Of a stretch of DNA of 64,000 nucleotides, positions 3,874 through 54,009 are shown in pieces. The stretch covers positions 7,453 through 71,452 of the forward strand of contig JAGCEZ010000055.1 of NCBI GenBank assembly GCA_017650365.1, in the 5' to 3' direction. Under the pieces are notes generated by a model. That model worked only from the letters and a program-made list of their open reading frames with translations. It was not told the origin of the DNA and made no database searches. Both the position numbers and the translations under genes were made by a program. The DNA comes from Fibrobacterales bacterium. GTDB taxonomy: Bacteria; Fibrobacterota; Fibrobacteria; Fibrobacterales; CADBQJ01. Each line of letters opens with the position of its first letter. Position 1 is the first letter of the stretch.

Positions 3874-5751
3874 TTGCTTTCGCTGGAAACACATCTGGAC
3901 TCGGCGCCGAAGAGCGTCCTGGCCCCCATGCGCCGCCACTGGAACCTGGCGCCCGGCAGCGTGGTCTCCAACGCGGCGGTCGCGCAGGCCGTCCGCGAGC
4001 GCGCCTTCGACGCGGACCGGATCCAGGCCCTGCTCGAGCGGTGCACCCCCGCGCAGCGCGACGTCCTCTGGGCGGTCTACGGCTCCGGCGACCGCGGCCT
4101 TCCGGTCGAGTCGCTCCGCGCCGCCTTCCCCTCCGCCGAACGCCATCTCCTCGACGACACCGTCGAGGAGTTCCGGCGCGAACTGGTCGTCGCGCGGACG
4201 GGCGGAGGCAATCCGGTCCTGCACGGCTTCTCCGAGCTCTGGCCCGACCTGGCCGACCGCTTCGCCGACTCGGTCCCCGCGGCGGAGAAGGGCAGCCTCG
4301 CCGAAATCGGCTACGAGGCCTTCGCCGTCCAGCACCTCCTCCATCTCTTCGCCGCGCTCGCGAAGGCCCCCTGGAAGTGCACGCGCGAGGGGGCGGTCAA
4401 GCAGAGCGACCGCCGGGAGTACGACAAGTCGTTCCGCTTCGGGAAGCAGATCTCCCCGCGCCTCTTCACCGAGGTCGTGGACGGCAAGATCTCCCCGGCC
4501 ATGGGCGAGGAGCTGGCGCTCCTGCTCGAGCTTTCGCGCCGCCTGGGGTTCGTCGCCCGCGACGACGAGGGGATCCGCCTCCGCGCCCGGGCCGAGGCGG
4601 CCGCCCGCAAAAACTGCCGCGAGCTCTGGACCGCGCTGCTGGACGCCTGGACCGCGGCGCGGGGATTCTCCGCCGAAGGCCTGCGCACGCTGCTGAGGAC
4701 GCTCTCCACGCCGCGCCGCGCGCGCCCGTGGTGCAAGATCTGGTCGCTGCGCGAACGCCTGGACGCGGACCGGAAGCTGCGCTGGAGCGGGCTTCCCGCC
4801 CAGCTGCGCGAACTGGTCGTGCTGGGGATGGTCCGCCTGGGGACGGACGCCTCGGGGAGCGTGGAACTCCTGGGGCTGACGCAGTGCGCGTCCGTCTGGT
4901 GCGAGACCGGGAGCCTTCCGGCCGAGCTCGCGGAGGCCATGCCCGGATACGCGACCGCGAACTTCGAGGTCTTCGTCCCGATCACCTCCTGCGGCGAACA
5001 CGCCTGGACGCTGCACCGCGCGGCCGAACTGGCCGCGGACGAGCAGTTCCTGAAGTTCACGCTGACCGAGGAGCGGCTGCTGGAGGCCCTGCGCGGCGGC
5101 GTGGATCCGCACGACGTGCGCTCGCTCGCCGAATGGCTGAAGCTCCCCCGCGGCCCCGCGAAGACGCTGGAGGAGTGGCTGAAGTCGTTCGAGCGCTGCC
5201 GCCTGCTGCGCCCGCTGCTGCTGGAGGTGCGCGACGACGCGCTGCGCGGGAAGCTGATGGCGAGCCGCGCCCTCTCCGAATGGATCTCGTGCGAGATCGA
5301 CGGCTTCGGGCTGGTGCTCCGCGACGGAGCCGAGTCGGCCGTCCTCCCGATTCTGGAGAGCTACGGCCTGCATCCGCGCCTTCCCTCCGAGGAGGGCGCC
5401 CCCCTGCCGGACGAGCCCGCGCCCGAATCCGCGCCCGCCGCCAAGCCAGCGCCGGAGATCGACTGGAGCTGGAGCGACCCGCCGCCCGAAACCGCGCTCC
5501 GCTTCGGGGAAATCGACCTCTCCGGGAACGGGTTCGGCGAAAAGACCCCGGACCAGCGCCGGCGCCTGCTGCGCCACTGCGCGGTCAACCGGCTCGAGGC
5601 CACGCTCTGGTGGCGCGACCAGGAGGGGAAGCCGCCGAAGAAGATCCGCGTCGTCCTCGAGGACTGCGACGGCGACACGGTCTCCGGCTCCGACGAAAAG
5701 GGCCGCCCCGTCCGCGTGGAGATCGCGAAGATCGCGAACCTGCGGTTCTGA
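3874..5751 (+). CDS. Hypothetical protein with a segment resembling the XPB/Ssl2 N-terminal 'helicase-associated' domain; no helicase core
   Basis: 625-aa ORF with high GC3. TTG start preceded by GGGAGG (3864-3869) and a TACATTTG box (3843-3850). The segment LKFTLTEERLLEALRGGVDPHDVRSLAEWLKLPRGPAKTLEEWLKSFER resembles, from memory, the bacterial XPB-associated domain. Confidence 0.55.
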   Translation: MLSLETHLDSAPKSVLAPMRRHWNLAPGSVVSNAAVAQAVRERAFDADRIQALLERCTPAQRDVLWAVYGSGDRGLPVESLRAAFPSAERHLLDDTVEEFRRELVVARTGGGNPVLHGFSELWPDLADRFADSVPAAEKGSLAEIGYEAFAVQHLLHLFAALAKAPWKCTREGAVKQSDRREYDKSFRFGKQISPRLFTEVVDGKISPAMGEELALLLELSRRLGFVARDDEGIRLRARAEAAARKNCRELWTALLDAWTAARGFSAEGLRTLLRTLSTPRRARPWCKIWSLRERLDADRKLRWSGLPAQLRELVVLGMVRLGTDASGSVELLGLTQCASVWCETGSLPAELAEAMPGYATANFEVFVPITSCGEHAWTLHRAAELAADEQFLKFTLTEERLLEALRGGVDPHDVRSLAEWLKLPRGPAKTLEEWLKSFERCRLLRPLLLEVRDDALRGKLMASRALSEWISCEIDGFGLVLRDGAESAVLPILESYGLHPRLPSEEGAPLPDEPAPESAPAAKPAPEIDWSWSDPPPETALRFGEIDLSGNGFGEKTPDQRRRLLRHCAVNRLEATLWWRDQEGKPPKKIRVVLEDCDGDTVSGSDEKGRPVRVEIAKIANLRF

Positions 5752-5834: not shown

Positions 5835-8800
5835 ATGCCTTTCGTCCATCTGATCAACCACTCCGACTTCTCGATGCTCCGGTCGTCGATCCGGACCGAC
5901 GACATCGTCGCCAACGCGAAGCGCGACGCCGACGAACAGACCGTCTTCGAAGACCACGCGAACATGCGCCGGGAGAAGGACCCGGAGAACAAGGGGAAGT
6001 TCCTCGAGAAAGGGAGCATCCCCTTCTCCGGCGCGGCGGCGCTGACCGACCGCGGGAACATGTGCGGCGCGCTCGAGCTCTACTTCCCCGCGATCCAGGC
6101 GGGGATCAAGCCGATCCTGGGCTGCGAGCTGATCTACGCGCCCAAGGGGCGGCGCGACCTCTCCGACCCCGACATCGTCTGGCTCCTGGCCGAAAACAAC
6201 GAGGGCTACTACAACCTCATCGACCTCGTCTCGCAGGGCTACCTGAACGACTACAAGGACGAGCCGGTCGTGGACTGGAAGCGGATGACGGAGAAGAACA
6301 AGGGGCTCTTCGCCATCTACGGCGGGCGCCGCTCGCACCTGGGCCGGGCGCTCCTGGACGGGAACGCGAAGCTGGCGAAGGAGCGCGTGGACGCGCTGCG
6401 CGAGCTCTTCGACCACGACCACTTCTTCCTGACGATCCAGAACAACGGGGCCCCCGACGACAAAACGCTGATCGCGAAGACGGAGGAGCTCGCGGACGCG
6501 GAGGGGATCCAGGTCGTCGCCACCGGCGACAACCACTACGCCCGGCGCGAGGACCGGAAGGCCTGGCAGGTGCTGCGCTGCATCGCGCGGCGCGAGAAGC
6601 TGGCCGACTACAAGGACGAGTGGCCCGGCGAACTCCACTGCCGCACGGCCGACGAGATGGAGCTGCTCTTCCGCGACCGGCCCGACGCGATCGCCAACAC
6701 CGTGAAGATCGCCGACGCCTGCAACGTGGTCATCCGGACCAAGACCGGCTACGAGTTCTGGCCGGTGTTCCCGATCCCCGAGGGGTTCGCGGACGCGGAC
6801 GAATACCTGGCGCACATCACGTGGGAGCGCGCGCCGAAGCGCTACCCCGACATGACCGAGGAGCAGCGGACGCGCATCCAGAACGAGCTCGACATGATGA
6901 AGAAGATGCACGTGGCCGGCTACATGCTCATCGTGCAGGACTTCATCGTCTGGAGCAAGGAGCACGGCGTTCCGGTGGGCCCGGGCCGCGGCTCGGCGGC
7001 CGGCTCGGTGGTCGCCTACATCATCGGCATCACGAACATCGACCCCTTCTACTACGGGCTTCTGTTCGAACGGTTCCTGAACCCCGAGCGCGTGTCGATG
7101 CCGGACATCGACACCGACTTCTCCGACCTGGAGCGCGGCCGCGTGGTGGACTACGTGGCGGAGCGCTACGGGCAGGACTGCGTCGGGCAGATCATCACCT
7201 ACGGCCGCCTGAAGGCCAAGGCGGTGCTGATCGACGTGGCCAGCGTCCTGGGCATGAACCGGAACGAGTTCAACGCCGTCACGAAGAAGATCCCGGCGCT
7301 GATCAACGGCCTCCAGGCGCCTCCGAAGAAGAAGGAGGGGAAGTCGTACGTGGACGAGATGCCCGAGATGCGGGAGCTCTTCGTCAACGGGACGGAGCAG
7401 TACCGGCAGATCTGGGCGATCGCGCTGAAGCTGGAGAACCTCGTGCGGCAGGCGGGGGTGCACGCGGCGGCGGTCATCATCGCGCCGAAGCCGCTGCGCG
7501 AGCTGGCGCCGCTCTACCGGGCCGCGGGCGAAAAGACGCCGGCGATCCAGTACGACAAGCACTACGCGGAGGACATCGGCTTCCTCAAGATGGACTTCCT
7601 CGGCCTGCGCAACCTCTCGGTGATCACCGACGCGCTGGAGATGATCGAGGAGAACCACGGCGTCAAACTCGACATGGACCACGTGGACCTGACGGACCCG
7701 GAGGCGTTCAAGCTGATGCAGGAGGGGCGCACGATCGGCGTCTTCCAGTTCGAATCGCCGGGCATGCAGAAGTACCTGCGCACGCTGCGCCCGACGAGCA
7801 TCTTCGAGCTGATCGCCATGAACGCGCTCTACCGCCCGGGCCCGATCGAATCGATCCCGAGGTTCATCAAGCGCAAGAACGGCGAGGAGCCGATCGACTG
7901 CTACGACCCGAAGTTCGAGGGGATCCTCGGCGAGACCTACGGGGTGATCGTCTACCAGGAACAGGTGATGAAGCTCTCGCAGGAGCTCTCGGGCTTCTCG
8001 CTGGGCGAGGCGGACAACCTCCGGCGCGCGATGGCGAAGAAGAAGGGGATGGAGACCTTCGAGGGCAAGTTCAAGGACGGCGCCGTGGCCCGCGGCTTCC
8101 CCCGCGCGCTGGCGGAGAAGCTCTGGGACGTGCTGATCCCCTTCTCAAACTACGCGTTCAACAAGTCGCACTCCGCGGCCTACGGGTTCGTCGCGTTCCA
8201 GACCGCGTTCCTCAAGGCGCACTACCCCGCCGAGTTCATGGCCGCGAACATCACCTCCGAAATCGCGAACGCCGACCGCGTGGCCGTGCTGATCCAGGAG
8301 TGCCGCGACCTCGGAATCAAGGTGATCCCCCCGGACGTGAACCGGAACAAGGCGCAGTTCTCGGTGCTCGACGGCTGCCTGAACTACGGCCTCGCCGGGA
8401 TCCGCGGCATCGGGATGCCCGCCGCGCGCGCCATCGTCGCCGAACGCGCGAAGGGCGGCCCGTTCCGCTCGCTCTTCGACTTCGCGCGGCGCATGGCCGG
8501 CGAGAACCTGATCAACAAGAAGGCGCTGGAGTGCCTGACGATGGCGGGCGCCTTCGACGGGCTGGAGGGGACGCGCGCCTCGCAGTTCGCCTCGGTGGAC
8601 AAGGCGATCGACCACGGCGCCAAGTGCCTCCGCGAGAAGGAGAGCGCGCAGGTCAACCTCTTCGGCGACTTCGGCGGCGAAGGCCCGGCGCCCGAGGACC
8701 CGCAGCTCGAGAACGCGGCGCCGTGGAGCTCGCTCGAGCTCCTCGACAAGGAGAAGAAGGTCCTCGGGCTCTTCGTCTCCAGCCACCCGCTCGAGGACTA

Positions 8801-9461
8801 CGAGCTGGAGCTCCGGAGCTTCTCGACCGCCGAGCTGCTCCGGGACTTCCCCTTCTCCGACCTCCCCGAGGGGCTCCCCTGGAGGCAGCGCAACGACCCC
8901 TCCCTGAAGCACCGCGTCTTCGTCGGCGGGATGGTGGAGAAGTTCCAGGCGCGCGTCAGCGAAAAGGGGCAGAACGCCGGGAAGCCCTTCGGCTCGGGCG
9001 TGCTCGCCACGAAGGCGGGCGAGCACCTCGACTTCGTCTTCTGGCCGGACGTCTTCGCCGCCGTGCAGGACCGCGTCGCCCCGGAAAGCATCGTCCTGCT
9101 CTCGGGCTACCTCGAGCACCGCAGGGGCGGGGGCCCGGACGACGTCCAGCTCGTGGGCGAGAACGCCTGGTCGCTGGAGAGCGTGCTCCCCAAGCTGACC
9201 CGCGCCGTCCACGTGGACGTGGACCTCTCCGCGCAGGGCGCGGAGTTCCTGGACGAGCTGAACGAGTTCCTGGACGACTGCGCCCCCGAACCCGGGGAGC
9301 CCGCGGCGAAGATCGTCATCAACGCCGCGCTCCCGTCGAAGAAGCGCGTCCACGCGCTGCTCGACCAGAAGCACGCGGTCGCGGTCACGCGCGGCTTCGT
9401 CAAGTCGCTCGCCGCGCTCGCGGGCGGGACGTCGCGCATCCGGCTCGCGCGCGAAGTCTAG
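5835..9461 (+). CDS. dnaE: DNA polymerase III alpha subunit
   Basis: 1208 aa. N-terminal PHP domain (FVHLINHSDFSMLRSS), then palm/fingers (..GPGRGSAAGSVVAYIIGITNIDP.., PDIDTDF) and a C-terminal OB region. Confidence 0.95.
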   Translation: MPFVHLINHSDFSMLRSSIRTDDIVANAKRDADEQTVFEDHANMRREKDPENKGKFLEKGSIPFSGAAALTDRGNMCGALELYFPAIQAGIKPILGCELIYAPKGRRDLSDPDIVWLLAENNEGYYNLIDLVSQGYLNDYKDEPVVDWKRMTEKNKGLFAIYGGRRSHLGRALLDGNAKLAKERVDALRELFDHDHFFLTIQNNGAPDDKTLIAKTEELADAEGIQVVATGDNHYARREDRKAWQVLRCIARREKLADYKDEWPGELHCRTADEMELLFRDRPDAIANTVKIADACNVVIRTKTGYEFWPVFPIPEGFADADEYLAHITWERAPKRYPDMTEEQRTRIQNELDMMKKMHVAGYMLIVQDFIVWSKEHGVPVGPGRGSAAGSVVAYIIGITNIDPFYYGLLFERFLNPERVSMPDIDTDFSDLERGRVVDYVAERYGQDCVGQIITYGRLKAKAVLIDVASVLGMNRNEFNAVTKKIPALINGLQAPPKKKEGKSYVDEMPEMRELFVNGTEQYRQIWAIALKLENLVRQAGVHAAAVIIAPKPLRELAPLYRAAGEKTPAIQYDKHYAEDIGFLKMDFLGLRNLSVITDALEMIEENHGVKLDMDHVDLTDPEAFKLMQEGRTIGVFQFESPGMQKYLRTLRPTSIFELIAMNALYRPGPIESIPRFIKRKNGEEPIDCYDPKFEGILGETYGVIVYQEQVMKLSQELSGFSLGEADNLRRAMAKKKGMETFEGKFKDGAVARGFPRALAEKLWDVLIPFSNYAFNKSHSAAYGFVAFQTAFLKAHYPAEFMAANITSEIANADRVAVLIQECRDLGIKVIPPDVNRNKAQFSVLDGCLNYGLAGIRGIGMPAARAIVAERAKGGPFRSLFDFARRMAGENLINKKALECLTMAGAFDGLEGTRASQFASVDKAIDHGAKCLREKESAQVNLFGDFGGEGPAPEDPQLENAAPWSSLELLDKEKKVLGLFVSSHPLEDYELELRSFSTAELLRDFPFSDLPEGLPWRQRNDPSLKHRVFVGGMVEKFQARVSEKGQNAGKPFGSGVLATKAGEHLDFVFWPDVFAAVQDRVAPESIVLLSGYLEHRRGGGPDDVQLVGENAWSLESVLPKLTRAVHVDVDLSAQGAEFLDELNEFLDDCAPEPGEPAAKIVINAALPSKKRVHALLDQKHAVAVTRGFVKSLAALAGGTSRIRLAREV

Positions 9462-9489
9462 CGCGGAGCGGCGCGGACGCCGCGGCGGG

Positions 9490-10863
9490 CTACTCCTCGT
9501 GGAACGAGATGGCGCACTTCGGCGCGAAGACGAACTCGCCGCGCCGGCGCCGCACGATGATCAGCTCGGGATGGCTCTCCTCGAGCCGCGCCATCAGGCG
9601 GTTGAGCCGCCCCTCGAAGTTCGGGTTCGAGACGTCGAGCGTGATCTCCGCGTCGCGCTTGAACTCGCGGTTCTCGAACGTCGTCCGCCCGGTGAGGAGG
9701 TAGGTCTTCAGCACGCGCCGGAAGATCTTCGCGGGGACGTTGCGGATGAAGTGCTCGCCGTTGATGGTGACGCTGTCGTCGACCGAGTGGTAGACGACCT
9801 CGGTCTTCGCCGAAATCGACTGGAGAAGGGCCGAATGGAGCGCGTCGATCCTCCGCGCGGTCTTCTTGTCCTCCGACAGGAGCCCTTCGACCAGGAGCTT
9901 CAGCGGATTGGCCGGGCCCTTCTTCGCCGGGAAGGGGGCGTAGCGGATGCGCGCGAGATAGACCGGGGCGCCGCAGCAGCAGCCCGGGCGGACGCGGGGC
10001 GGAACGCCCTTCGGGAGCTTCTCCGCGAGGACGACGACCGGGGAGTCCACGTCGAGCGGGTCGCGCATCGGCAGCCCGAACGACTTCGCCGCGGCCGAGA
10101 AGGCCTTGACCGCGCCGACCTCGCTCCCCTTCCAGAACGCCTTCTTCCCGCGGATCTCCAGGCCGGGGAGGAGGGTTTCGGCGGGAAGCACGTCGGCCAT
10201 CAGGTCGAGCTCCTCGTAGGGGGGCATCCCGAAGACCTCGGGCAGGTGCCGCAGCCAGGGGCAGAACCAGCGCGAGACGTCGAAGGGGATGCCCGTCGAC
10301 TCGTCCGCGTCGAAGAGGAACCAGGCCTCCGACGACGTCTTCCCGGGGCGGATCTCGATCAGCTCGTTGGTGCTGTGCGGGAAGAAGGTGCGGCTCAGCC
10401 GCTCGAACCGCTCCAGCAGGAACTCGCGGCGGTCCGGCGCGGCCAGCATGTCGCCCAGGTGGGGGTTGACCAGCGCCAGCCAGGCCTCCGCGGAGAAGAA
10501 CCGCCAGGGATGGACGCCGGAGTAGAAGGTCTTCACGAACTCGTCGAAGTCGATCCGCTCGTCGGCGCAGAACTCCTCCAGGGCTCCGAAGATCCTCCGG
10601 GCGACCTCGACCGGGACGGGCATCTCGGGGTCGCAGAGCAGCTGGATCTTCCGGAACGCGTCGAGGACGACCCCGTTGCGCTCCACGGGGATCCGGTCGA
10701 GGAAGCGCCCGATCTGCGGAGCGGAGAAGGAGAGGAGCATCGCCTTGTAGACGTGCCGGACGACGCTGATTTCGGGCGTCCCGTCGGCGGAGACGTCGTT
10801 TCCCAGGAATCCGGGGACGGAGGCCGGGGGAAGGAGGATCGTGTTGTTGGCCTGGAGCTTCAC
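9490..10863 (-). CDS. Putative transcriptional regulator: unrecognised about 350-aa N-terminal domain plus OmpR/PhoB-like winged-helix C-terminus
   Basis: C-terminus ..VTINGEHFIRNVPAKIFRRVLKTYLLTGRTTFENREFKRDAEITLDVSNPNFEGRLNRLMARLEESHPELIIVRRRRGEFVF follows the trans_reg_C pattern. GTG 10863 sits 5 nt after a minus-strand TATATTTA box, and codons 10741-10863 have high GC3. Alternative start ATG 10740. Confidence 0.6.
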   Translation of the reverse strand: MKLQANNTILLPPASVPGFLGNDVSADGTPEISVVRHVYKAMLLSFSAPQIGRFLDRIPVERNGVVLDAFRKIQLLCDPEMPVPVEVARRIFGALEEFCADERIDFDEFVKTFYSGVHPWRFFSAEAWLALVNPHLGDMLAAPDRREFLLERFERLSRTFFPHSTNELIEIRPGKTSSEAWFLFDADESTGIPFDVSRWFCPWLRHLPEVFGMPPYEELDLMADVLPAETLLPGLEIRGKKAFWKGSEVGAVKAFSAAAKSFGLPMRDPLDVDSPVVVLAEKLPKGVPPRVRPGCCCGAPVYLARIRYAPFPAKKGPANPLKLLVEGLLSEDKKTARRIDALHSALLQSISAKTEVVYHSVDDSVTINGEHFIRNVPAKIFRRVLKTYLLTGRTTFENREFKRDAEITLDVSNPNFEGRLNRLMARLEESHPELIIVRRRRGEFVFAPKCAISFHEE

Positions 10864-10868
10864 ATGGG

Positions 10869-10876
10869 TAAATATA
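10869..10876 (-). promoter_or_regulatory. -7 box TATATTTA for the divergent regulator gene (leaderless geometry)
   Basis: Minus strand reads TATATTTA-cccat-GTG(10863). Confidence 0.55.
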
Positions 10877-10880
10877 TTTG
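10873..10880 (+). promoter_or_regulatory. -7 box TATATTTG for mutL (leaderless geometry)
   Basis: Perfect TAnnTTTG, 4 nt before GTG 10885. Overlaps the opposite-strand box by 4 bp. Confidence 0.55.
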
Positions 10881-10884
10881 GTTT

Positions 10885-12723
10885 GTGGCTCCGCGCATCC
10901 GATTTCTTCCCGAAGAATGCATCAACCAGATCGCCGCGGGCGAGGTGATCGAACGCCCCGCCTCCGTGGTCAAGGAGCTGGCGGAGAACGCGCTGGACGC
11001 CGGCGCGCGCAGAATCACCGTCCAGATCGCCGGCGGAGGCCGGGAGCTGGTCCGGATCGTGGACGACGGCTGCGGGATCCCCCGCGGGGACGTCGCCGTC
11101 TGCGCGCTGAGGCACACCACCTCCAAGCTCTCGGACGCCCGCGAGCTCTTCGGGATCCGGACCAACGGGTTCCGGGGCGAGGCCCTCGCCTCCATCGCCG
11201 CCGTGGCCCGGCTGAAGATCCAGACCCGCACGGAGGACGAGGAGGCCGGCTCCGAGCTGGTCGTCTCGCCCGGGCGCGAGCCCGAGGTCCGCGACTGCGC
11301 GCGCGAGCGCGGGACGACGGTCACGGTGGAGGACCTCTTCCTCAACGCCCCCGTCCGCGCCAAGTTCCTCTCCTCCCCAGCCGCCGAGACGGGCCGGATC
11401 CTCGACGTGCTCCAGCGCCTCGCCCTGGCCAACCCCGAAGTCGCGTTCCGGCTGCGGCAGGACGACCGCGACCTCCTTCTCGCCGGCCCGGGCGACCTCG
11501 CGCGCCGGACGAAGGAGATCCTCGACCCCGCGATCTCCGGCAACCTCCTTCCGGTCGAATGGGAGGAGGAGGGCGTCCGGATCTCCGGGTTCGTCGGGAA
11601 CGAGAGGACCCTGAAGGCGCGGCGCGCGCACCAGTACCTGTTCCTCGACCGCCGCCCGATCTGGAACGCGGCGCTCTTCCGCGCCGTCGCGCTGGGCGCC
11701 GAGGCGCTGCACGGAAACCCGGCCGCGGTCCTCTTCTTCTCGCTTCCGCCCGAAGAGGTGGACGTGAACGTGCACCCCGCGAAGCGGGAGGTGCGGTTCG
11801 CGCACGAAAGCCGGCTGTTCGAGATCGCGGTCCACGCGGTGCGGGCCGCCCTGGCCGGGCGCGTGGAATGGGCGCCCGCCCCGGAACAGGCGCCCGGGAA
11901 CGGGCCCGCTCCCGCGCCGGATCCCGGACCCGCGCCCGCGGAGAGGCCCGTCCCCCGCGGCGTCCCCGCGGGACGGGCGGCCGCCGCCTGGAAGGACTTC
12001 GCGTGGCGCGTGGAGGAGGCCCCGAAGGACGAGATCAAGGAGCTTTCGCGCGACCTCTTCGCCGAGGCGGAGGAGCGCGAGAAGGCGCTCCGCATGCCCG
12101 AGCGCGACCGGATCGCGGGGATCGACGCCGCGGAGTCCGGGGAACCCGCCGCGAACTTCCTCCAGGTCGGGAACTCCTTCGTCGTCGCGCCCTACGCCGG
12201 AGGGCTGCTGCTGATCGACCAGCGCGCCGCCCACCAGCGCATCCTCTTCGAGCAGGCGCGGAGGCGGATGCAGCGCCGCGAGAACCGCTCGCAGCAGCTG
12301 CTCTTCCCCGAACTGCTGGAGCTGAGCCCCGCGCAGAGCCACTGGGTCTCGAGCTCGCTCGAATCGCTTTCGCTCGTCGGGTTCGAGGTGGAGCACTTCG
12401 GCGCGAACTCCTGGCAGCTCCGCGCCACGCCGCCGGACATGACCGTCGGGAACGCCGTGGAGACCCTCAAGGGGATGGCCGACGACGCAGAAGAGGCGGA
12501 CCCGAAGATCGAGGAGGACTTCTGCGACCGTCTCGCGCTCTCCTTCGCGAAGAAGGCCTCCATCGACGAACGCGCCCTCTCCCCCGAGGAGACGGCCGCG
12601 CTCGTGGACGACCTCTTCGCCACCGAGAACCCCTACGTCGCGCCCGACGGCTCCTCCGTCGTCGTCAAGCTGACTTTGGACGAGATCCGCGACAGCTTCC
12701 GCAGAAAGGGACCGCGCGGATGA
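10885..12723 (+). CDS. mutL: DNA mismatch repair protein MutL (endonuclease motifs degenerate)
   Basis: N-terminal GHKL ATPase: IRFLPEECINQIAAGEVIERPASVVKELAENALDAGA..VDDGCGI. GTG 10885 is 4 nt after a TATATTTG box. The upstream in-frame ATG 10864 is followed by low-GC3 codons (atg ggt aaa tat att tgg ttt). Confidence 0.9.
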   Translation: MAPRIRFLPEECINQIAAGEVIERPASVVKELAENALDAGARRITVQIAGGGRELVRIVDDGCGIPRGDVAVCALRHTTSKLSDARELFGIRTNGFRGEALASIAAVARLKIQTRTEDEEAGSELVVSPGREPEVRDCARERGTTVTVEDLFLNAPVRAKFLSSPAAETGRILDVLQRLALANPEVAFRLRQDDRDLLLAGPGDLARRTKEILDPAISGNLLPVEWEEEGVRISGFVGNERTLKARRAHQYLFLDRRPIWNAALFRAVALGAEALHGNPAAVLFFSLPPEEVDVNVHPAKREVRFAHESRLFEIAVHAVRAALAGRVEWAPAPEQAPGNGPAPAPDPGPAPAERPVPRGVPAGRAAAAWKDFAWRVEEAPKDEIKELSRDLFAEAEEREKALRMPERDRIAGIDAAESGEPAANFLQVGNSFVVAPYAGGLLLIDQRAAHQRILFEQARRRMQRRENRSQQLLFPELLELSPAQSHWVSSSLESLSLVGFEVEHFGANSWQLRATPPDMTVGNAVETLKGMADDAEEADPKIEEDFCDRLALSFAKKASIDERALSPEETAALVDDLFATENPYVAPDGSSVVVKLTLDEIRDSFRRKGPRG

Positions 12724-14411
12724 ACGCGTCGCGCGCCGCGGCCCTGGCCCTCGCTCCGGCCCTCCTCGCCCTCGCCCCGGCCCGCGCCGCCGAGGACCCG
12801 GTCCTGCCGTGGATGGAGTCGAAGCTGGAGGAGCTCGCGCCCGAGCTGGCTTCGCGCGCGGAGGACCCGGTCCTGCAGCTGCAGCTCTTCGTGGAAGACG
12901 CCGTGGACTGGACCGTCGCCGCGGACCGCGGCTCCCTCGTCTCCGAAAAGAGCGAGAACCGCCGGACCCTCCAGGCCAACGTGGTCCTGGGCGACTCCGC
13001 CTTCAGCAGCCGCCGGCCTCTCTACTGGGACGAGACCGTTCCCCCGAACCCGGGGAGCGCGGCCGCGCTTCCGGTGGACGCGTTCTCGGAGAAGCAGGCG
13101 GACCGCGCGGTCCGGCAGGCCTTCTTCTGGGCGCTGCAGGGCGCGCGCGCCCATTTCGCGCGGCTGAAGAGCGAGCGGAACGCGCTGGTCGCGGAGGAGA
13201 ACGCCGGGCTGGACCTCGCGCCCGCGGCGAAGGCGGACCTCGTCGACACCGCCGGACTGGCCCCGGTCGATTCCGCGGCGCGCGCCCTCCTGCGCGGGCG
13301 GATCCTCGCGCTTTCGCGCCGCTTCCTCGGGATCCCCTGGCTCCACAGGTCCGGGATCGAGCTCTCCTGCGCGGGCGAAGTCGCGCGCAAGGCCTTCAGC
13401 GGGCTGCCCGCCACGCGCGACGTCCGGCGGCTCTGCGACCTGAACGTCACGGTGGCCACGAGCACGGACGACGGCATGATCCTGGCGCAGAACCGGACCT
13501 GGAGCTTCGCCTCCGTCCCGCGCGACGTGGACACGGCCGCGGTCGGCCGCGCGGTCGACTCGCTCCTCCTCCGGCTCGACTCGCTGCGCGGCGCGAAGGT
13601 CGGCGAGCCCTACGCCGGGCCCGTGATCCTCGACGGGCCCGCGGCCGCGGTCTACGTGCACGAGGTGCTCGGACACCGGCTCGAAAGCCACCGGCTCCGC
13701 AAGAAGACCGACGGGCAGACGTTCCTGCGCAAGCGCGGGGAATCCGTCGCCGCGCCCGAGTTCTCGCTCGTCGACGACCCCACGGTCGCCGAATGGGACG
13801 GGGAGGCGGTGCACGGCTTCTACCGCGTGGACGAGGAAGGGACGCCCGCGCGCCGCGCCGAGCTCGTCCGCGACGGGAAGCTGGTCGGGTTCCTCGACGG
13901 GCGCGCCACGCTCAGCCCCGAAGACTCCTCCAACGGCCACGGGCGCGGATTCCCGCAGATCTCGCGCATGGGGACGACGATCCTCGCCACGTCGAAGCCG
14001 GTCCCGCGCGAAGAGCTGCGCGCCCGCTTCCTGAAGGCGCTGGCCGAACGCGGGCTCCCCTACGGCCTGGTCGTCCACGACCTGCAGGAGGGCTACACCC
14101 TCACCGGACGGAGCTATCCGCAGACCTTCCGGCTCCACGCCCTCTCCGCCACGCGCGTCTGGGCCGACGGCCGTCCCGACGAGCTTGTCCGGGGCGTCAA
14201 CCTCTCCGGATCCCCGCTGAGCTCGCTCGCGCAGCTCGTCGCCGCGTCGGACAGGATGTCGCTCTTCAACGGCTGGTGCGGCGCCGAAAACGGCTGGGTC
14301 CCCGTCTCCTCCATCGCGCCCGACCTGCTGTTCGCGACCCTCGAGGCCGAGATCCAGCCGACGCGCTCCGTCCCGAAGCCGCAACTGCCGCCGCCGGAGG
14401 AAAAGCCGTGA
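12720..14411 (+). CDS. TldD-family metalloprotease with signal peptide
   Basis: MNASRAAALALAPALLALAPARA/AE signal peptide. HEVLGHRLE metal-binding motif typical of TldD. ATGA overlap with the mutL stop. Confidence 0.85.
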   Translation: MNASRAAALALAPALLALAPARAAEDPVLPWMESKLEELAPELASRAEDPVLQLQLFVEDAVDWTVAADRGSLVSEKSENRRTLQANVVLGDSAFSSRRPLYWDETVPPNPGSAAALPVDAFSEKQADRAVRQAFFWALQGARAHFARLKSERNALVAEENAGLDLAPAAKADLVDTAGLAPVDSAARALLRGRILALSRRFLGIPWLHRSGIELSCAGEVARKAFSGLPATRDVRRLCDLNVTVATSTDDGMILAQNRTWSFASVPRDVDTAAVGRAVDSLLLRLDSLRGAKVGEPYAGPVILDGPAAAVYVHEVLGHRLESHRLRKKTDGQTFLRKRGESVAAPEFSLVDDPTVAEWDGEAVHGFYRVDEEGTPARRAELVRDGKLVGFLDGRATLSPEDSSNGHGRGFPQISRMGTTILATSKPVPREELRARFLKALAERGLPYGLVVHDLQEGYTLTGRSYPQTFRLHALSATRVWADGRPDELVRGVNLSGSPLSSLAQLVAASDRMSLFNGWCGAENGWVPVSSIAPDLLFATLEAEIQPTRSVPKPQLPPPEEKP

Positions 14412-16090
14412 AGCGCGCCTCGCTTTCCGCGCTCCTCTTCGGCGCGCTTCTCTCCGCGGAGGCCGGCGCGGCCGCCTCGCCCGACGCGATCGTCGCGGCG
14501 CTCAGGGACGAGATCCGCCGCGCGGAGGACTCCCTGGTCTCGGCCGACGGCGCGCGCCCGCACTACCTCGCCGCCCGGTACACCGTCCACCGGACCCGGG
14601 TCTTCGCCGCGGAACGCGGGGAACCGCTCCCCGGATCGCGCCAGGACTTCACGGACCTGGTGGCCGAGATCCGCGTCGGCTCGCCGGAGCTCGACGACGG
14701 CCGCTTCGAGGGAACCCCGACCGAACCCTTCCCCTTCGACAGCCCGCTTCCGCGCGACGGGAGCCCGACGCTGCTGCGCCGCGCGCTCTGGCTGCTCTTC
14801 GACGACGGCTTCCGCCAGGCCGCGCGCACGCTGGCCGAAAAGCGCGAGTGGCTGAAGACGCATCCGCAGCTGCGGCCGGAGGGCCCGGACTTCGTCCCGC
14901 CCGAACCGCGCACGGCCGTCGACACGCTCCCGCCGTTCTCGCCCGACGCCGCGGAAATCAAGTCGAAGCTGGCGGAGATCAGCTCCTTCGCGCTGGAGTT
15001 CCCCGAACTGGTCGAGGCGCCCGTGGCGCTGCAGATCGTGGAGAGCCGGCGCTACGTCGTGGACAACCTGGGAACCGTGTCGATCTCCGACGACCGCGAG
15101 TTCCGCGCGGTCGCCGCGGTCCTGACGCAGGCGGAGGACGGGACTCCGCTCTGGGACTGGTGGAAGGAGGCCTCGCCCGTCTGGAGCGAGCTCGACCTCG
15201 CGCCGGCGAAGCGGATCCTCTCCGAACGCGCCCGGAACCTCGTCGCGCTGCGCGGAGCCGCGCCCGGCGAAGGCTACCGCGGGCCGGTGCTCTTCGAAGG
15301 CGAGGCCGCGGCGCAGCTCGTCTGGTACGCGCTGGGCGAACCGCTCTGCGCCGGCGAGGCGGAGATGCAGCTGGGCGAATACGCGCCGCCCCGCATCCTG
15401 CTGACGACGCTCGGGCACCGTCTGCTGCCCAAGGGGTTCTCGCTGGACGACGTCCCCTCGCTCTCCTCCTTCCTCGGGCGCACGCCGCCCGGGCGCTACC
15501 GCGCGGACCACGAGGGCTCCCCCGCGCGCGACCTGGCCCTGATCCGGAACGGCATCCTCGAGGAGCTCCCCGCCGGGCTCGCCCCGCTCCGCGGGCAGGC
15601 GCGCGGAAACGGACACTTCCGGTTCGGGCAGGCCTACCCGGGCACGCTGCTCTTCTCCTGCTCCCCCGAGCGCGAGACCAGGGACGTCGGCGCGGCCTAC
15701 CTCCAGGCGGTGCGCGACGAGGGCAACCCCTCCGGAATCGCGGTGGAGCGGTTCGAGGACTCCGACGCGGCCTCGCTGCTCTCCTCGCCCCTCGCGGACG
15801 GGATCCGCTCGAAGCTCTCGGTCTCCTCGCTCAACGTCACGCAGCTCCCCGCGCCCACGGCGATGGTCTCCGTCGCCGCGGACGGCTCCCGGACGCCCGT
15901 CCGCCCGCTGGAATTCGCGACCATGGGGATCTCCTCCTTCCGCGACTGGACCCTCTGCGGCCGTGACTACGCGCTCCACTCGCCCGGGCTGAACTCCGCA
16001 GTGGCCGCGCCCCCGCTCGCCATCGGCTTCGCCACGCTGCAGCTTCCCGCGCCCCAGAGCCGGGAGTCCATGGACTGGATCCTGAAGTAG
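14408..16090 (+). CDS. PmbA/TldE-like partner protein (no HExxH) with signal peptide
   Basis: GTG start in a GTGA overlap with the TldD-like stop. (M)KRASLSALLFGALLSAEA signal peptide. Similar length and architecture to the upstream paralog, without the metal motif. Confidence 0.72.
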   Translation: MKRASLSALLFGALLSAEAGAAASPDAIVAALRDEIRRAEDSLVSADGARPHYLAARYTVHRTRVFAAERGEPLPGSRQDFTDLVAEIRVGSPELDDGRFEGTPTEPFPFDSPLPRDGSPTLLRRALWLLFDDGFRQAARTLAEKREWLKTHPQLRPEGPDFVPPEPRTAVDTLPPFSPDAAEIKSKLAEISSFALEFPELVEAPVALQIVESRRYVVDNLGTVSISDDREFRAVAAVLTQAEDGTPLWDWWKEASPVWSELDLAPAKRILSERARNLVALRGAAPGEGYRGPVLFEGEAAAQLVWYALGEPLCAGEAEMQLGEYAPPRILLTTLGHRLLPKGFSLDDVPSLSSFLGRTPPGRYRADHEGSPARDLALIRNGILEELPAGLAPLRGQARGNGHFRFGQAYPGTLLFSCSPERETRDVGAAYLQAVRDEGNPSGIAVERFEDSDAASLLSSPLADGIRSKLSVSSLNVTQLPAPTAMVSVAADGSRTPVRPLEFATMGISSFRDWTLCGRDYALHSPGLNSAVAAPPLAIGFATLQLPAPQSRESMDWILK

Positions 16091-20920: not shown

Positions 20921-21984
20921 CGTTCGACCTCCGCGTGGATCCGCTTCGCGATCTCCATCGCGCTGTCCGGATGCCCGAGCTCCAGCGCGGCCTTCCCCAT
21001 CGACTCCAGGCGGGCGGGGTCGTCGAGCAGCGAGGAGATCTTGTTCCAGAGGTCGTCGGGCTCGGACTCCAGCTCCACGAGCGCGGCGCCGGCGCGTTCC
21101 AGCGTCCGGGCGTTGTGCTCCTGGTGGTTCGCGGTGGCGAAGGGGAAGGGGACGAGGACCGTCGGCTTCCCGAAGGCGGTGATCTCGGCCAGCGTGGAGG
21201 CGCCGGCGCGGCAGACGACCAGCGTCGCGTTCTGCATGTAGGGATAGACCTGCGACACGAAGGCGGTCGGGTGGACGTTCGCGAATCCCTTCGTCGCCGC
21301 GGAGACCTCGTCGAACTGCGCGGGGCCGGTCTGCCAGACCATCGAGAGCCCGGGACGCGCGCCGATCTTCTCCGCGCATCCGAGCAGGCGGTCGTTCAGC
21401 CCCTTGGCGCCCTGCGATCCGCCCATCACCAGGATCCGCTCCGCCGCGCCCTCGAACTCCGCGGGCACGGGGAGCTTTTCGCCCACGGGGAGCGGGCGGA
21501 CGGGGTTGCCGGAGAGTTCGTGCGGGCACTTGAGCGCCTTCGCGGCGCTCTCGTCCGCGAGGAAGACCTTGCGCGCGAAGCGGCTGGACACGCGGTTCGC
21601 GACGCCGGCGACCGCGTTCTGCTCCTGCAGGTAGACCGGAATCCCGAGGATCCGCGCCGCGGCGGCGACCGGAAGCGAGACGTAGCCGCCGGTCGCGACC
21701 ACCACGTCGGGGCGCTCGCGGCGCACGGCCTTCAGCGCGGAGAAGAGCGAGCGGACCAGGCGGACGGGAAGGAGCAGGTTCGCGGCCAGGCTCCCGCGCT
21801 TCAGGGGCCAGGCGAGCACGGGGACGAAGGGCCAGCGGTCGCCGACCAGCCGGCGCTCCATGCCCTCCTCGCGCCCGGCGAACACGGCCGTGCCGAAGCC
21901 GGCCTTCTCCCAGGACTCCGCGAGGGCGATCGCGGGATAGACGTGGCCGCCGGTTCCGCCGCAGGCGAACATCGTTTTCTTCAT
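20917..21984 (-). CDS. murG: Lipid II synthase MurG (UDP-GlcNAc transferase)
   Basis: MKKTMFACGGTGGHVYPAIALAE.., ..VVCRAGASTLAEITAFGKPTVLVPFP..HQEHNA. ATGA overlap with the ftsW stop. Confidence 0.92.
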   Translation of the reverse strand: MKKTMFACGGTGGHVYPAIALAESWEKAGFGTAVFAGREEGMERRLVGDRWPFVPVLAWPLKRGSLAANLLLPVRLVRSLFSALKAVRRERPDVVVATGGYVSLPVAAAARILGIPVYLQEQNAVAGVANRVSSRFARKVFLADESAAKALKCPHELSGNPVRPLPVGEKLPVPAEFEGAAERILVMGGSQGAKGLNDRLLGCAEKIGARPGLSMVWQTGPAQFDEVSAATKGFANVHPTAFVSQVYPYMQNATLVVCRAGASTLAEITAFGKPTVLVPFPFATANHQEHNARTLERAGAALVELESEPDDLWNKISSLLDDPARLESMGKAALELGHPDSAMEIAKRIHAEVER

Positions 21985-23105
21985 GCCTTTTCTCCTTCCG
22001 TGGAGTTCTTGCGCGACAGGCCGAGGAGCACGCCGCAGGCGAACAGCGAGACCACCATGCTCGTTCCGCCGTAGCTGATCAGGGGCAGGGGCTGGCCGGT
22101 CGCCGGCCCGAGCTGGACGCAGACGCCGACGTGGATGAAGACGTTCAGCGCGAGCAGCATGGTCATCCCGAAGGCGACCAGGAGGCGGAACACGTCCTCC
22201 TGCCCGCGCGCGATCCTGACGCCGCGCCAGATCAGCACGCCGAAGAGGAAGAGGACGAGCGCGGCCCCGAGGAAGCCGAGCTGCTCCCCGAGCATCGAGA
22301 AGATCGCGTCCGTGAAGGGTTCCGAGACCTGGCCGTTCCCGAGCGCGCCGCGCCCGATGCCCGTCCCGGTCAGCTGCCCGTTGCCGAGCGCCTTGAGCAT
22401 GTCGCTCTGGTGCGTCGCGGCGTTCGCGGCCATCGTCCCGGCCTTGTCGCCCATGCCCAGGAGCGCGGCGATGCGGGCGCGGGAGTGCGCCTGGCTCATC
22501 AGGACGACGCCGATCGCGGGAAGCCCGCAGAGCGCGAGCAGGGCGATGTGGAAGAGCCGGCATCCCCAGACGAAGAGCATCCCGATCCCGATTCCCGTCA
22601 CGATGAGGGCCATGGAGTTGCTCGGCTCGAGGACGAGGAGGAAGGCGACCAGCCCGACGGAGACCAGCGGCGGGAGCATGCCCTGCGAGAAGGAGTCCTT
22701 GAGATGCTCGGTCGCCTTGAGCTTGAACGCCAGGAAGAAGACGATCGCGATCTTCGCGATCTCGGAGGGCTGGACGCTCATCGGGCCGCGGAACCAGCGC
22801 TGGGCGCCGTTGAGGTTCTTCCCCAGCCCCGGCACGAGGACCAGGACGAGAAGGGCCACGGAGAGGACGAAAAGCGGGCGCGCGATCCTCTCCCACGACC
22901 TCGCGGGGACGAGGAGCGCGCCGAACATCACCGCGCACCCGGCGGCGACGTTGGCCAGGTGCTTCCAGAAGAAGTAGGAGGAGGCGAGGTCCCGGCGCTG
23001 CGCCATGTAGACGCTCGAACCGAAGACGATGGCCACGCCGAGCGCGAGCAGAACGAGCACGCACCCGAGCATGATCCTGTCCACCGGTCCCACGCGTCCG
23101 TCCAT
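21981..23105 (-). CDS. ftsW: SEDS-family peptidoglycan polymerase FtsW
   Basis: 374 aa, about 10 TM segments, SEDS motifs (..QPSEIAKIAIVFFLA.., ..PLPLISYGGTSMVV..), located in the dcw cluster. Confidence 0.9.
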   Translation of the reverse strand: MDGRVGPVDRIMLGCVLVLLALGVAIVFGSSVYMAQRRDLASSYFFWKHLANVAAGCAVMFGALLVPARSWERIARPLFVLSVALLVLVLVPGLGKNLNGAQRWFRGPMSVQPSEIAKIAIVFFLAFKLKATEHLKDSFSQGMLPPLVSVGLVAFLLVLEPSNSMALIVTGIGIGMLFVWGCRLFHIALLALCGLPAIGVVLMSQAHSRARIAALLGMGDKAGTMAANAATHQSDMLKALGNGQLTGTGIGRGALGNGQVSEPFTDAIFSMLGEQLGFLGAALVLFLFGVLIWRGVRIARGQEDVFRLLVAFGMTMLLALNVFIHVGVCVQLGPATGQPLPLISYGGTSMVVSLFACGVLLGLSRKNSTEGEKA

Positions 23106-23108
23106 CGG

Positions 23109-24002
23109 CTACGCCTCCGAAACCGTCCTGGCCCATTCCGCGCCGAGCCTGAGCGCCTCGACCTCGGCGCACCCCACCGCCGGGAAGCAGACGACCGCCG
23201 TCTCCCCGTCGGAGATCTTCAGCGCCTTCGCGAGGGCCGACTTCATCGACGAGACCGCGTAGACGTCCATGCTGCGGCGGAGGACGCTCCGCTGCGCGCG
23301 CGGAAGCGACATCAGGTGGATCAGCGTGCAGTCGCCGGAGATCATCAGCTCCTCGAGCCGGGAGTCCAGGACGACGAAGTTCCCGCCGAGCACGACGAAG
23401 GCCGGCCCGGGCATCCAGCGCAGCGCCCTGCGGACGTCGTCCTGGGAGCGGAAGGCGTGGCCGTCCAGGAAGCGGATCCCGGCGACGCGCCCGACTTCGC
23501 GCAGGCGGCCGTTCCCCATGCAGCAGGAGAGGAGCGCCTCGCGCATGCGTTCCGGCGACGCGCCCTGCCACGCCGCCCACTGCAGCGCGCAGACCGCGAC
23601 GTCCAGCCACGAGGGGTCGGGAAGCGTGATCTCGTCGACCACGGCGATCACGCGCGCGCAGCGGTTCGTGACGAGCGACACCATTCCGTCGCGCACGCGG
23701 ACGCTTCCGTCCTCCGCGTCGAGCTCGCGCGCCGCGCCGAGGACCGCCGCGCAGAACGCGCGGTCGAGCCGCAGCACCGAGAAGCCGTCCGTGATCTCCA
23801 GCGACTCCGCGTCCGGCTCGCCGGCGATTTCGGCGATTTCCGGCTTCCCTTCGCGCTCCGCGGCGTTCCACAGGTCGAGGAAGAACGACTGCCACCCGCG
23901 CGCGGGCGTCGCCTCCAGGCGGGCGTCCTTCAGCATCCAGAGCTGTTCGCGCCGGGCGAGGATCCCGTCGGCGGCGTCGGTCTTTTCCATCAGCGCGTTC
24001 AT
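23109..24002 (-). CDS. MurD-like protein lacking the N-terminal Rossmann domain and ATP-binding P-loop (probable pseudoenzyme)
   Basis: 297 aa. The C-terminal two thirds are colinear with E. coli MurD as recalled from memory: [20 protein letters not shown] vs [20 protein letters not shown]; VVLGG vs LLLGG; [29 protein letters not shown] vs [29 protein letters not shown]. No GxxGKT/S motif. Intact ORF with very high GC3 and an ATGA overlap with the murF stop. Confidence 0.6.
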   Translation of the reverse strand: [297 protein letters not shown]

Positions 24003-25378: not shown

Positions 25379-25386
25379 GTCGAGTT

Positions 25387-53166: not shown

Positions 53167-54009
53167 ATGAGCAGCCAGCACCGTTTTCCGCGTTTCCGTC
53201 CCGTTTTCGGCGTTTTGGCCCTTCTCTGCGCCTTCGCCTGGGGAGCGGAACCCGCTTCGGAACCCGTTTCCGGGGCCGCGGACATCGACGGCGGCTCCAC
53301 GAATCCGGCCGCCGCCCAGGCCGAAAAGAAGTCCTTCCGCACCTATCTCTTCGAGGATCTCCTCCCCGTTTCGCCCGAAGAGTACATCTCCAAGGGGCGG
53401 ATCACGGCGGGCACCCAGGTCTCGCTGATGCAGGCGACCATCAGCGACCTCGACATCTCGCTGGCCGACATCTACGAACTGGACGGCTACATCCTGAACG
53501 TGGAGGCCTTCGGCGCCTGGTTCTTCCGCGACGCCGTGGCCGTGGGGCTCCGCGCCGGCTACAGCCGCACCGAATACACCTTCGACTTCGAGGTGAACGA
53601 GGACCTGACCGACCTGGCGCAGGACCGCGACTTCGTCAGCAACGGCTTCTCGCTCACCCCCTACCTGCGCTACTACCTCAAGCTCTTCCCCACGAGCGCG
53701 TTCTACTTCTTCAGCGAAATCGACCTGACCTACGAATACTCCACCGGTCTTTCCGCGGTGGACGACGGGGAGAACCTCGACAAGACGCGCACCACGACGC
53801 ACGTCATCGAGGCGGGCGTCAACCCCGGCGTGGCGATCTTCATCCTGAAGGGGTTCGCCTTCGAGACCTCCGTCGGCCTGCTGGGCCTGAGCACCGGCAT
53901 CCGCGAAATCGAGACCAACGGGACGTCGAAGAGCGAGATCGTCACGAACATCATCAACTTCAGGATCAACCTGCTGGCGCTCAACTTCTCGCTGGCCTAC
54001 TACTTCTAG
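53167..54009 (+). CDS. Small outer-membrane beta-barrel protein
   Basis: Signal peptide ..VFGVLALLCAFAWG/AE. Alternating amphipathic strands. C-terminal ..NFSLAYYF with a terminal aromatic residue, typical of OMP barrels. Confidence 0.65.
   Translation: MSSQHRFPRFRPVFGVLALLCAFAWGAEPASEPVSGAADIDGGSTNPAAAQAEKKSFRTYLFEDLLPVSPEEYISKGRITAGTQVSLMQATISDLDISLADIYELDGYILNVEAFGAWFFRDAVAVGLRAGYSRTEYTFDFEVNEDLTDLAQDRDFVSNGFSLTPYLRYYLKLFPTSAFYFFSEIDLTYEYSTGLSAVDDGENLDKTRTTTHVIEAGVNPGVAIFILKGFAFETSVGLLGLSTGIREIETNGTSKSEIVTNIINFRINLLALNFSLAYYF

Follow-up and report, generated by a model that had tools for sequence, protein, structure and literature searches.

The MutL protein encoded in a 64-kb stretch of Fibrobacterales bacterium DNA (here called the window) has, as judged by alignment with characterized enzymes, lost the two-metal endonuclease site: each of the five metal ligands, and the catalytic arginine with them, has been replaced. 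The same loss extends through the sampled Fibrobacterota, in which constraint is relaxed at exactly the active-site positions and the rest of the C-terminal domain is held, and both the ATPase and the beta-clamp-binding motif are kept. The protein is very probably unable to nick DNA by the known mechanism, and the gene is probably a functional mutL ortholog whose product acts as a catalytically dead matchmaker, having lost its site independently of E. coli-type MutL.

Residues at the MutL endonuclease site

The three motif stretches that bear on nicking are all in frame within a single open reading frame (ORF) of 619 amino acids (aa) (Table 1). Near-identical proteins annotated by the NCBI Prokaryotic Genome Annotation Pipeline (PGAP) start at GTG 10885 with the N-terminus MAPRIRFLPEE, and this codon is more likely than ATG 10864 to be the true start, being the better fit to the usual MutL N-terminus. 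The product matches the Pfam families HATPase_c_3, DNA_mis_repair (PF01119; E = 2e-25), and MutL_C (PF08676; E = 1e-27), scores 462 bits against TIGR00585 (cutoff, 180), and is on these features a member of the MutL/MLH family, with an ATPase, a transducer, and a C-terminal dimerization domain. GHKL motifs I to IV (E..N, DxGxG, GxxGxA, and GT) are all present at positions 10933 to 11328, and the ATPase and transducer motif columns are nearly invariant across 47 relatives, in agreement with the initial annotation, made from the DNA sequence alone, which had described the ATPase as intact.

Endonuclease-type MutL proteins bind two catalytic metals in a site built by the DQHA(X)2E(X)4E, ACR, and CPHGRP motifs. 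Mutation of either of two DQHA-motif residues, the first Asp and the first Glu, or of the CPHGRP His or Arg abolishes nicking or in vivo repair (PMC2744016; PMC10366529). The His of CPHGRP is essential (PMC2744016), and work from 2023 established that its Arg is catalytic and is required in vivo (PMC10366529). At the five ligand positions of the B. subtilis enzyme, the window MutL has R454 for H464, Q458 for E468, K563 for C604, A593 for C635, and D595 for H637, and the catalytic R639, which is the Arg of CPHGRP, corresponds to S597, a replacement on which the initial annotation did not remark. Parts of the motifs persist: of the first motif, D462 and the final Glu (E473) are kept as D452 and E463, and Pro594 and Gly596 remain in the last motif.

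Several alignments place these residues in the same register. When searched against PDB with phmmer, the last 200 residues align end to end both with the C-terminal domain of B. subtilis MutL (3GAB; E = 2.4e-16) and with NgoL of N. gonorrhoeae (3NCV; E = 5.7e-10), with the motifs in register and free of gaps. The B. subtilis first motif, IIDQHAAQERIKYE, stands opposite LIDQRAAHQRILFE in the window, MMSCKGSIK opposite SFAKKASID, and FTCPHGRPII opposite YVAPDGSSVV. A MAFFT alignment with 27 relatives and the MutLs of B. subtilis, Neisseria, and E. coli gives an identical motif register. The AlphaFold model of the C-terminal domain (mean predicted local distance difference test score [pLDDT], 92.6) has its best Foldseek matches in 3GAB, 3KDK, and 3NCV (E = 1e-13 to 1e-12; 25 to 27% identity), and the match to E. 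coli 1X9Z is much weaker (E = 8e-6; 14% identity). The initial annotation had put the His-to-Arg, Glu-to-Gln, Cys-to-Ala, and His-to-Asp changes at homologous positions, and phmmer, MAFFT, and AlphaFold/Foldseek agree with it; all three stretches translate as it quoted them, SFAKKASI is without a Cys, and alignment to the endonuclease domains of B. subtilis, N. gonorrhoeae, and Aquifex puts R454, Q458, K563, A593, and D595 at the ligands. Its prediction of a nicking-deficient MutL is a reasonable one, given the published mutagenesis of the first Glu of DQHA and of the His and Arg of CPHGRP.

A second set of ligands elsewhere in the C-terminal domain was considered and rejected. The only Cys in the domain is C554, and its His residues are H457, H493, and H511. 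C554 and H493 are conserved in the closest relatives only, and H457, which is conserved in ligand-less and canonical proteins alike, is not a metal-ligand position; H511 was not looked at separately. With one Cys, three His, and no conserved candidate among those checked, the domain contains no intact ligand set at other positions; the presence of such a set is what the initial annotation had named as a finding that would overturn its claim.

Spread of ligand loss and the constraint that remains

All 11 members of the cluster formed at 90% identity, which come from independent assemblies, have identical motif residues, indicating that the replacements are no sequencing artifact. Two of these members (MBP5188285.1 and MBO7500487.1) are named "Fibrobacterales bacterium," consistent with the earlier placement of the host outside the Gammaproteobacteria. 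When ligand state is read across the best 120 homologs, it tracks lineage. Every Fibrobacterota-type MutL in this set, including relatives at 80, 66, and 50% identity, has lost both Cys and the His of the last motif, and the MutLs named for Fibrobacter, Fibromonadaceae, and "Fibrobacteria" are likewise without them. All ligands are kept in the Firmicutes matches and in most Acidobacteria-type matches of the same set, with partly degenerate sites in two Acidobacteria-type proteins named Pyrinomonadaceae (P0105 and P0111). MutLs named for Gemmatimonadota have DQHAAHERVLFE intact and both Cys and the His lost (Gemmatimonadota-type examples are positions 8001 to 9809 of L012, from GCA_965242885.1, and P0063, P0069, and P0096, reading SGH/SSH and TPRGRP/TPGGRP), a state that looks like an intermediate stage of decay or a one-metal remnant. 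In a Saprospiraceae MutL, H464 is lost together with Cys, Cys, and His.

Searching 1.84 billion cluster representatives with the C-terminal domain (HMMER) returned 11,280 matches. The 144 representatives closest to the query, one per 50%-identity cluster, comprise 58 that keep the full set of five ligands and 74 in which C604, C635, and H637 are all missing. Two isolates, Spirosoma arcticum (WP_461050101.1) and Aquiflexum sp. (WP_373522934.1), are among the ligand-less representatives that bear names, as is a Chitinophagales metagenome-assembled genome, indicating that the Bacteroidota are affected too. A scan of genome contigs for exact peptide patterns of the window MutL gave only two unrelated loci. 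In metagenome loci, the C-terminus is readable in 22 of 23 MutLs encoded beside the conserved neighbor gene described below, and all 22 are ligand-less. Taken across these homologs, ligand loss is an old trait of the whole clade, typical of the phylum and not an oddity of the window. The initial annotation went astray in framing it as a loss by the window MutL itself, since it is shared by all sampled Fibrobacterota and, in part, by Bacteroidota and Gemmatimonadota.

The HMMER search also returned proteins that are canonical apart from one ligand: P0317, P0394, P0405, and others read HGDPHGRP, in which Cys635 is replaced by Asp. Another otherwise canonical variant has Lys in place of Cys604. 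Such natural single-ligand variants might still be active.

Constraint is relaxed precisely at the site. Of 257 aligned C-terminal domains, 62 are canonical, 180 are ligand-less, and 15 are mixed. In the canonical group, column entropy is 0 bits at H464, E468, C604, C635, H637, and R639 (domain mean, 1.89), as opposed to 2.58, 2.50, 2.82, 1.40 (where S, T, or A occurs), 3.36, and 2.68 bits, respectively, in the ligand-less group (domain mean, 2.12). The columns of the fold and the clamp interface (Q434, D452, Q453, A456, H457, L461, E463, SQxLLFP, G506/F507, P523, P590, P594, G596, and F612) are equally conserved in both groups. No column was found to be conserved in the 180 ligand-less domains alone when these were set against the 62 canonical ones, so no substitute catalytic center is visible. 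The internal beta-clamp/PCNA-binding motif of the regulatory subdomain, defined as Qxx[LI]xP (PMC6511837), is among the retained features, and its SQxLLFP columns are 82 to 99% conserved in the ligand-less group and 69 to 98% conserved in the canonical group.

Both domains of mutL are under purifying selection, and the C-terminal domain is not decaying. By the Nei-Gojobori method, the ratio of nonsynonymous to synonymous substitution rates (dN/dS) in the C-terminal domain is 0.32 against the 80% relative (L002) and 0.18 against the 50% relative (L003), with dS saturated in the latter comparison, and the ratio in the N-terminal domain is 0.27 against the 80% relative. Identities to four relatives are 83, 71, 48, and 43% for the C-terminal domain and 82, 73, 59, and 59% for the N-terminal domain, and fall to about 20% in the linker.

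A neighbor-joining tree, admittedly crude, was built from the N-terminal domain only and is therefore independent of ligand state. It groups the window MutL with those of Fibrobacter and Fibromonas, and of the 109 leaves that make up this clade, 106 are ligand-less. The topology supports an ancient loss, or more than one, at the base of the Fibrobacterota, before their radiation. In the other half of the tree, ligand-less MutLs of the Gemmatimonadota and Bacteroidota types are interspersed with canonical ones. For the FCB phyla (by which we mean the Fibrobacterota and also, judging from the Spirosoma, Aquiflexum, Chitinophagales, Saprospiraceae, and Gemmatimonadota-type sequences, the Bacteroidota and Gemmatimonadota), one common loss and several separate losses are both compatible with this tree.

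Genes around mutL

The window is ordinary chromosome of 69% G+C, with the gene order peptidase M23, ftsX, tsaD, dnaE, mutL, and two secreted TldD/PmbA-like proteins, followed by the dcw (division and cell wall) cluster from ftsZ to mraZ, a pyruvate:ferredoxin oxidoreductase-like gene, a nuo operon, glycoside-hydrolase lipoprotein genes, and uvrA. Within these 64 kb, the part of the genome covered here, there is no mutS, mutH, NucS, DNA methyltransferase, or recognizable nuclease gene. A tblastn search of the window with a verified E. coli MutH gave nothing better than E = 0.07, and PF02976 is absent from the genes of the window. All of the matches listed (at least 120) in a MutH search of a large protein database are from Enterobacteria and have no bearing on the Fibrobacterota, and the observed/expected ratio of GATC in the window, 1.02, says nothing on Dam-directed repair. 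Two other tetranucleotides are scarce in the window: CTAG is strongly avoided, with 13 occurrences where 77 would be expected (ratio, 0.17), and GTAC likewise falls below expectation (0.57).

Table 1. Positions of mutL, its motifs, and neighboring genes in the window, and of related genes at other loci
Feature	Location	Strand	Remarks
mutL coding sequence	10864..12723	+	619 aa from ATG 10864; 612 aa from GTG 10885; assigned by ORF translation, Pfam, and TIGR00585
GHKL ATPase and transducer motifs, intact	10933..11799	+	Motif coordinates
ATPase motif AAGEVIERPASVVKELAENALDAG	10933-11004	+	
ATPase motif DDGCGI	11062-11079	+	
ATPase motif GFRGEALASI	11167-11196	+	
ATPase motif GTTVTV	11311-11328	+	
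Transducer motif NVHPAKREVRF	11767-11799	+	Conserved Lys of HPxKxEVRF present
Degenerate DQHA(X)2E(X)4E, DQRAAHQRILFE	12217..12252	+	His to Arg454, first Glu to Gln458; Asp and last Glu kept
Beta-clamp-binding motif QQLLFP, retained	12292..12309	+	Counterpart of QEMIVP in B. subtilis, with which it aligns, and of 482-QPLLIP-487 in E. coli
Degenerate ACR/SCK, SFAKKASI	12541..12564	+	Cys ligand to Lys563
Degenerate C(P/N)HGRP, APDGSS	12640..12657	+	Cys to Ala593, His to Asp595, Arg to Ser597, last Pro to Ser598
Divergent neighbor of mutL, 457 aa	9490..10863	-	No Pfam or NCBIfam family
dnaE (DNA polymerase III alpha)	5835..9461	+	Pfam PHP, DNA_pol3_alpha, finger, HHH_6
TldD/PmbA-like paralogs (two), with signal peptides	12720-14411, 14408-16090	+	
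Conserved 625-aa protein directly upstream of dnaE	3874-5751	+	Also in L007, 2662-4539
Divergent-gene homolog	L002, 998-2377		
Divergent-gene homolog	L003, 3385-4761		
Divergent-gene homolog	L005, 3288-4457		
Divergent-gene homolog	L006, 8590-9888		
Divergent-gene homolog	L007, 8564-9829		
Divergent-gene homolog	L008, 8580-9890		

The gene transcribed divergently from mutL has a product with no sequence match in Pfam, NCBIfam, or PDB. Its AlphaFold model (pLDDT, 85) resembles, by Foldseek, an H-NOX sensor (E = 2e-3; probability, 0.99) and an OmpR/BaeR-type winged helix (BaeR; probability, 0.98), the winged helix lying C-terminal to the H-NOX-like fold in the predicted structure. The C-terminal DNA-binding domain is the best-conserved part, its last 96 aa being 41% identical to the C-terminus of Nitrospira GAF-domain proteins; in the N-terminal part, only one Asp and one Arg are invariant. 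Homologs of about 390 to 460 aa occur across the Fibrobacterota, and at all seven loci inspected, reaching as far as Fibrobacter sp. UWH4, they stand beside mutL in the same divergent position, with 29 to 78% identity. A metagenome scan with an alignment of the family found 57 loci, of which 36 are informative in having a full-length homolog and enough upstream DNA. In 25 of these 36, mutL lies divergently upstream, and the other 11, which are more distant homologs, are unlinked to mutL. With an H-NOX-like and OmpR-type winged-helix fold and no match to a nuclease family, the protein was rejected as the missing nuclease. On the strength of the structural model, it looks like a one-component regulator and may control mutL or serve as a DNA-binding partner.

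The start codon of this gene (at 10863) is separated from that of mutL by 0 nucleotides (nt) if mutL begins at ATG 10864 and by 21 nt if it begins at GTG 10885, so that each promoter would lie inside the opposite gene; more distant relatives have a gap of 86 to 470 nt. The sole A+T-rich patch near 10861 to 10887 is GGGTAAATATATTTGGTTT.

The remaining neighbors are conserved as well. The order dnaE, sensor gene, mutL, tldD-like gene, pmbA-like gene, and ftsZ recurs in L002, L003, L005, and L008, and dnaE also adjoins mutL in L003/L004, L005, L006, and L007 (in L005, from incomplete ORFs without a recorded Pfam match). The first TldD/PmbA-like start overlaps the mutL stop by 4 nt (ATGA), making it probable that these genes are cotranscribed with mutL. 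Two other proteins were set aside: a small protein encoded 3' of mutL in L005, L007, and L008, considered as a repair candidate, has a signal peptide and is absent from the window, and the 625-aa protein upstream of dnaE, which is of unknown function, has only a subthreshold match to Helicase_C_3 (PF13625; 22 bits versus a cutoff of 34) and nothing in PDB or NCBIfam.

At two Bacteroidota loci, L013 (Saprospiraceae; 7859-12388) and L014 (1962-5595), mutL is followed by two rhomboid protease genes. Next after these in L013, and absent from L014, is the gene for an endonuclease/exonuclease/phosphatase family protein (PF03372 and DUF8431), a possible partner-nuclease lead for the Bacteroidota.

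Between the pmbA-like gene and ftsZ, L002 encodes a PIF1-like helicase (7681-9452, minus strand) in two ORFs of 97 and 493 aa, which may reflect a frameshift or a split gene; this helicase is absent from the window. Within the dcw cluster of the window, a 297-aa ORF (23109-24002, minus strand) weakly matches only the C-terminal half of MurD (TIGR01087; 24 bits versus a cutoff of 212), and murF (23999-25390) and ftsW (21981-23084) have no evident ORF of mraY size between them. A glycan-degrading locus is suggested by a cluster of lipoprotein-like genes at 53215 to 60882 (plus strand), whose products include two GH18 (chitinase-family) proteins and a PCMD/DUF5018 protein.

Readings of the function of ligand-less MutL

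A published survey finds MutH restricted to the gamma-proteobacteria (PMC3424549), and the working rule of the field is that bacteria without MutH nick with MutL itself (PMC9159922; PMC11840563; PMC6511837). MutLs without a nuclease are already known in E. coli MutL and MLH1; the window MutL differs from these in its lineage, in having arisen independently from an endonuclease-type domain, and in having no known partner. Like the window protein, E. coli MutL (1X9Z) is without the DQHA, ACR, and CPHGRP ligands and keeps the GHKL ATPase, the dimerization fold, and the clamp motif (QPLLIP versus QQLLFP in the window), which in E. coli is functional and used (PMC6511837), and both proteins are presumed to be matchmakers and not cutters. 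They differ in that the window domain is only 14% identical to 1X9Z, as opposed to 25 to 27% identical to the B. subtilis and Neisseria endonuclease-type domains, and still displays the motif skeleton (DQ.AAH.R.L.E and.P.G..), both of which argue that its loss was independent of that in E. coli. They differ also in that MutH is gamma-proteobacterial, whereas the window host belongs to the Fibrobacterota, with no partner nuclease known. The closest relatives of the C-terminal domain are the MutL endonucleases (B. subtilis 3GAB/3KDK, N. gonorrhoeae 3NCV, Aquifex 5B42, and Thermus), with which it shares domain order and the position of the clamp motif. It also has, as they do, the Asp and final Glu in the DQHA motif and the Pro and Gly in CPHGRP; it departs from them in having R454, Q458, K563, A593, D595, and S597 at six positions that are invariant in the canonical group. 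MLH1, an indispensable scaffold in repair, likewise combines an intact ATPase with a C-terminal domain devoid of endonuclease motifs, although its structural similarity to the window domain is distant (Foldseek E = 3e-4 to 2e-3) and it is an obligate heterodimer with PMS2, PMS1, or MLH3, the partner bearing the site, whereas no second MutL was seen for the window clade among the Fibrobacterota-named matches.

Because none of the five ligands remains, the Arg is lost too, and the corresponding columns drift freely across the clade, nicking by the known mechanism can be set aside with high confidence. The ATPase, the dimerization fold, and especially the beta-clamp motif are kept under selection, which points to a matchmaker role at the replication fork. 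From these observations we infer that the protein does not nick, that it continues to serve mismatch repair, and that the nick has another source. MutS would recruit MutL to the mismatch, the retained clamp motif would tether it to the replication clamp, and MutL would then license excision on a strand break made by something else. That break might come from a separate nuclease that took over before the site decayed, as MutH does the cutting in E. coli, or from discontinuities already present in nascent DNA (the ends of Okazaki fragments and the 3' end) acting with a UvrD-type helicase; we regard the two sources as about equally likely.

Certain points weigh against a noncutting matchmaker. 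D452, H457, E463, and, in the window lineage only, D595 could in principle bind Mn2+. A candidate nuclease beside mutL is absent from every Fibrobacterota locus inspected, and a literature search, conducted for the Bacteroidota, gave no usable evidence of a mutator phenotype from mutL inactivation in these phyla. Both the loss of nicking and the matchmaker role are, for the MutLs of this clade, read from comparisons of sequence and predicted structure.

One alternative is that MutL has left mismatch repair, either as a repurposed ATPase scaffold (in recombination control, or in a regulatory role with the divergent gene) or as a dying gene. In B. subtilis and Thermus, repair depends on the site that is lost here (PMC6511837; PMC10366529), and mutL is tightly and persistently linked to the gene for an uncharacterized DNA-binding protein, both of which would fit such a departure. 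We nevertheless consider it unlikely: purifying selection acts on both domains, the ATPase and clamp motifs are fully conserved across a very deep radiation (74 separate clusters at 50% identity within the set of 144 closest representatives), and E. coli MutL and MLH1 demonstrate that a MutL without a nuclease can be central to repair. Occurrence of the same state in whole phyla, cultured Bacteroidota included, makes decay implausible.

Residual nicking through a noncanonical site composed of D452, H457, E463, and D595, for example with an all-oxygen Mn2+/Mg2+ center instead of a Zn2+ pair, seems quite improbable. It draws on the conservation of the D462 and E473 equivalents in the ligand-less group (0.82 and 0.52 bits), on the change of H637 to Asp, a potential ligand, in the window and its four closest relatives, and on the fact that the Asp of DQHA is essential in canonical enzymes without binding zinc (PMC10366529). 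However, D462 and E473 are equally conserved in canonical MutLs, as would suit residues that support the helix structurally; variability in the ligand-less group is highest at the H637 column, with S, K, and D leading, so that Asp595 is no conserved feature; the catalytic Arg is lost along with the ligands; and no residue is conserved specifically in the ligand-less group.

Still less credible is an arrangement like that of MLH1, with the window MutL as the noncatalytic half of a heterodimer and a motif-bearing second MutL encoded elsewhere. Eukaryotes provide the precedent, MLH1 being without the motifs and PMS2 or MLH3 having them (PMC10366529), and MLH1 C-terminal domains are recognizable as structural neighbors of the window domain. 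But no second MutL was seen among the Fibrobacterota-named proteins in the homolog search, and the characterized bacterial MutLs are homodimers, with the dimerization core conserved in ligand-less MutLs. A canonical sequence, P0384, does fall inside the ligand-less clade of the N-terminal tree, but it was rejected as a paralog or as the ancestral state because its gene neighborhood is unrelated and lacks the hallmark neighbor gene of the clade; its placement is probably a product of the crude neighbor-joining method. Finally, an assembly or sequencing artifact or a pseudogene in a metagenome bin, which might be suspected of an uncultured, 69% G+C organism known from metagenome assemblies alone, is already refuted by a frame open over 619 codons, by the 11 independent copies identical at the motifs, by the persistence of the state in relatives sharing 80, 66, and 50% identity with it, and by dN/dS values well below 1.

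The reading of mutL as encoding a noncutting matchmaker can be carried further, to the proposal that whole FCB phyla run MutS-MutL repair with a dead MutL and without MutH, using an undiscovered factor for incision or strand discrimination. We put this forward tentatively, at somewhat less than even chances; the divergent sensor/winged-helix gene might be part of such a system. The open-access library searched yielded no paper linking the DQHA motif with Bacteroid* taxa and none joining the MutL endonuclease motif, Bacteroidetes, and MutH, although the survey of Banasik and Sachadyn (2014) may already record the absence. In NCBI records, all of these proteins go under the name "DNA mismatch repair endonuclease MutL," a label that their sequences do not support, and automatic annotation would seem to overstate their function.

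The rule that bacteria without MutH nick with MutL would fail for an entire deep clade and apparently also for the Bacteroidota, a dominant phylum of the gut and ocean. Because the cultured relatives include Fibrobacter succinogenes, Flavobacterium johnsoniae, and Bacteroides, the latter two genetically tractable, the question is directly testable. If the broader proposal is true, the start of excision and the discrimination of new from old strands would be left unexplained for a large part of bacterial diversity, and these phyla would represent a bacterial solution of a third kind, distinct from both MutH and endonuclease-type MutL.

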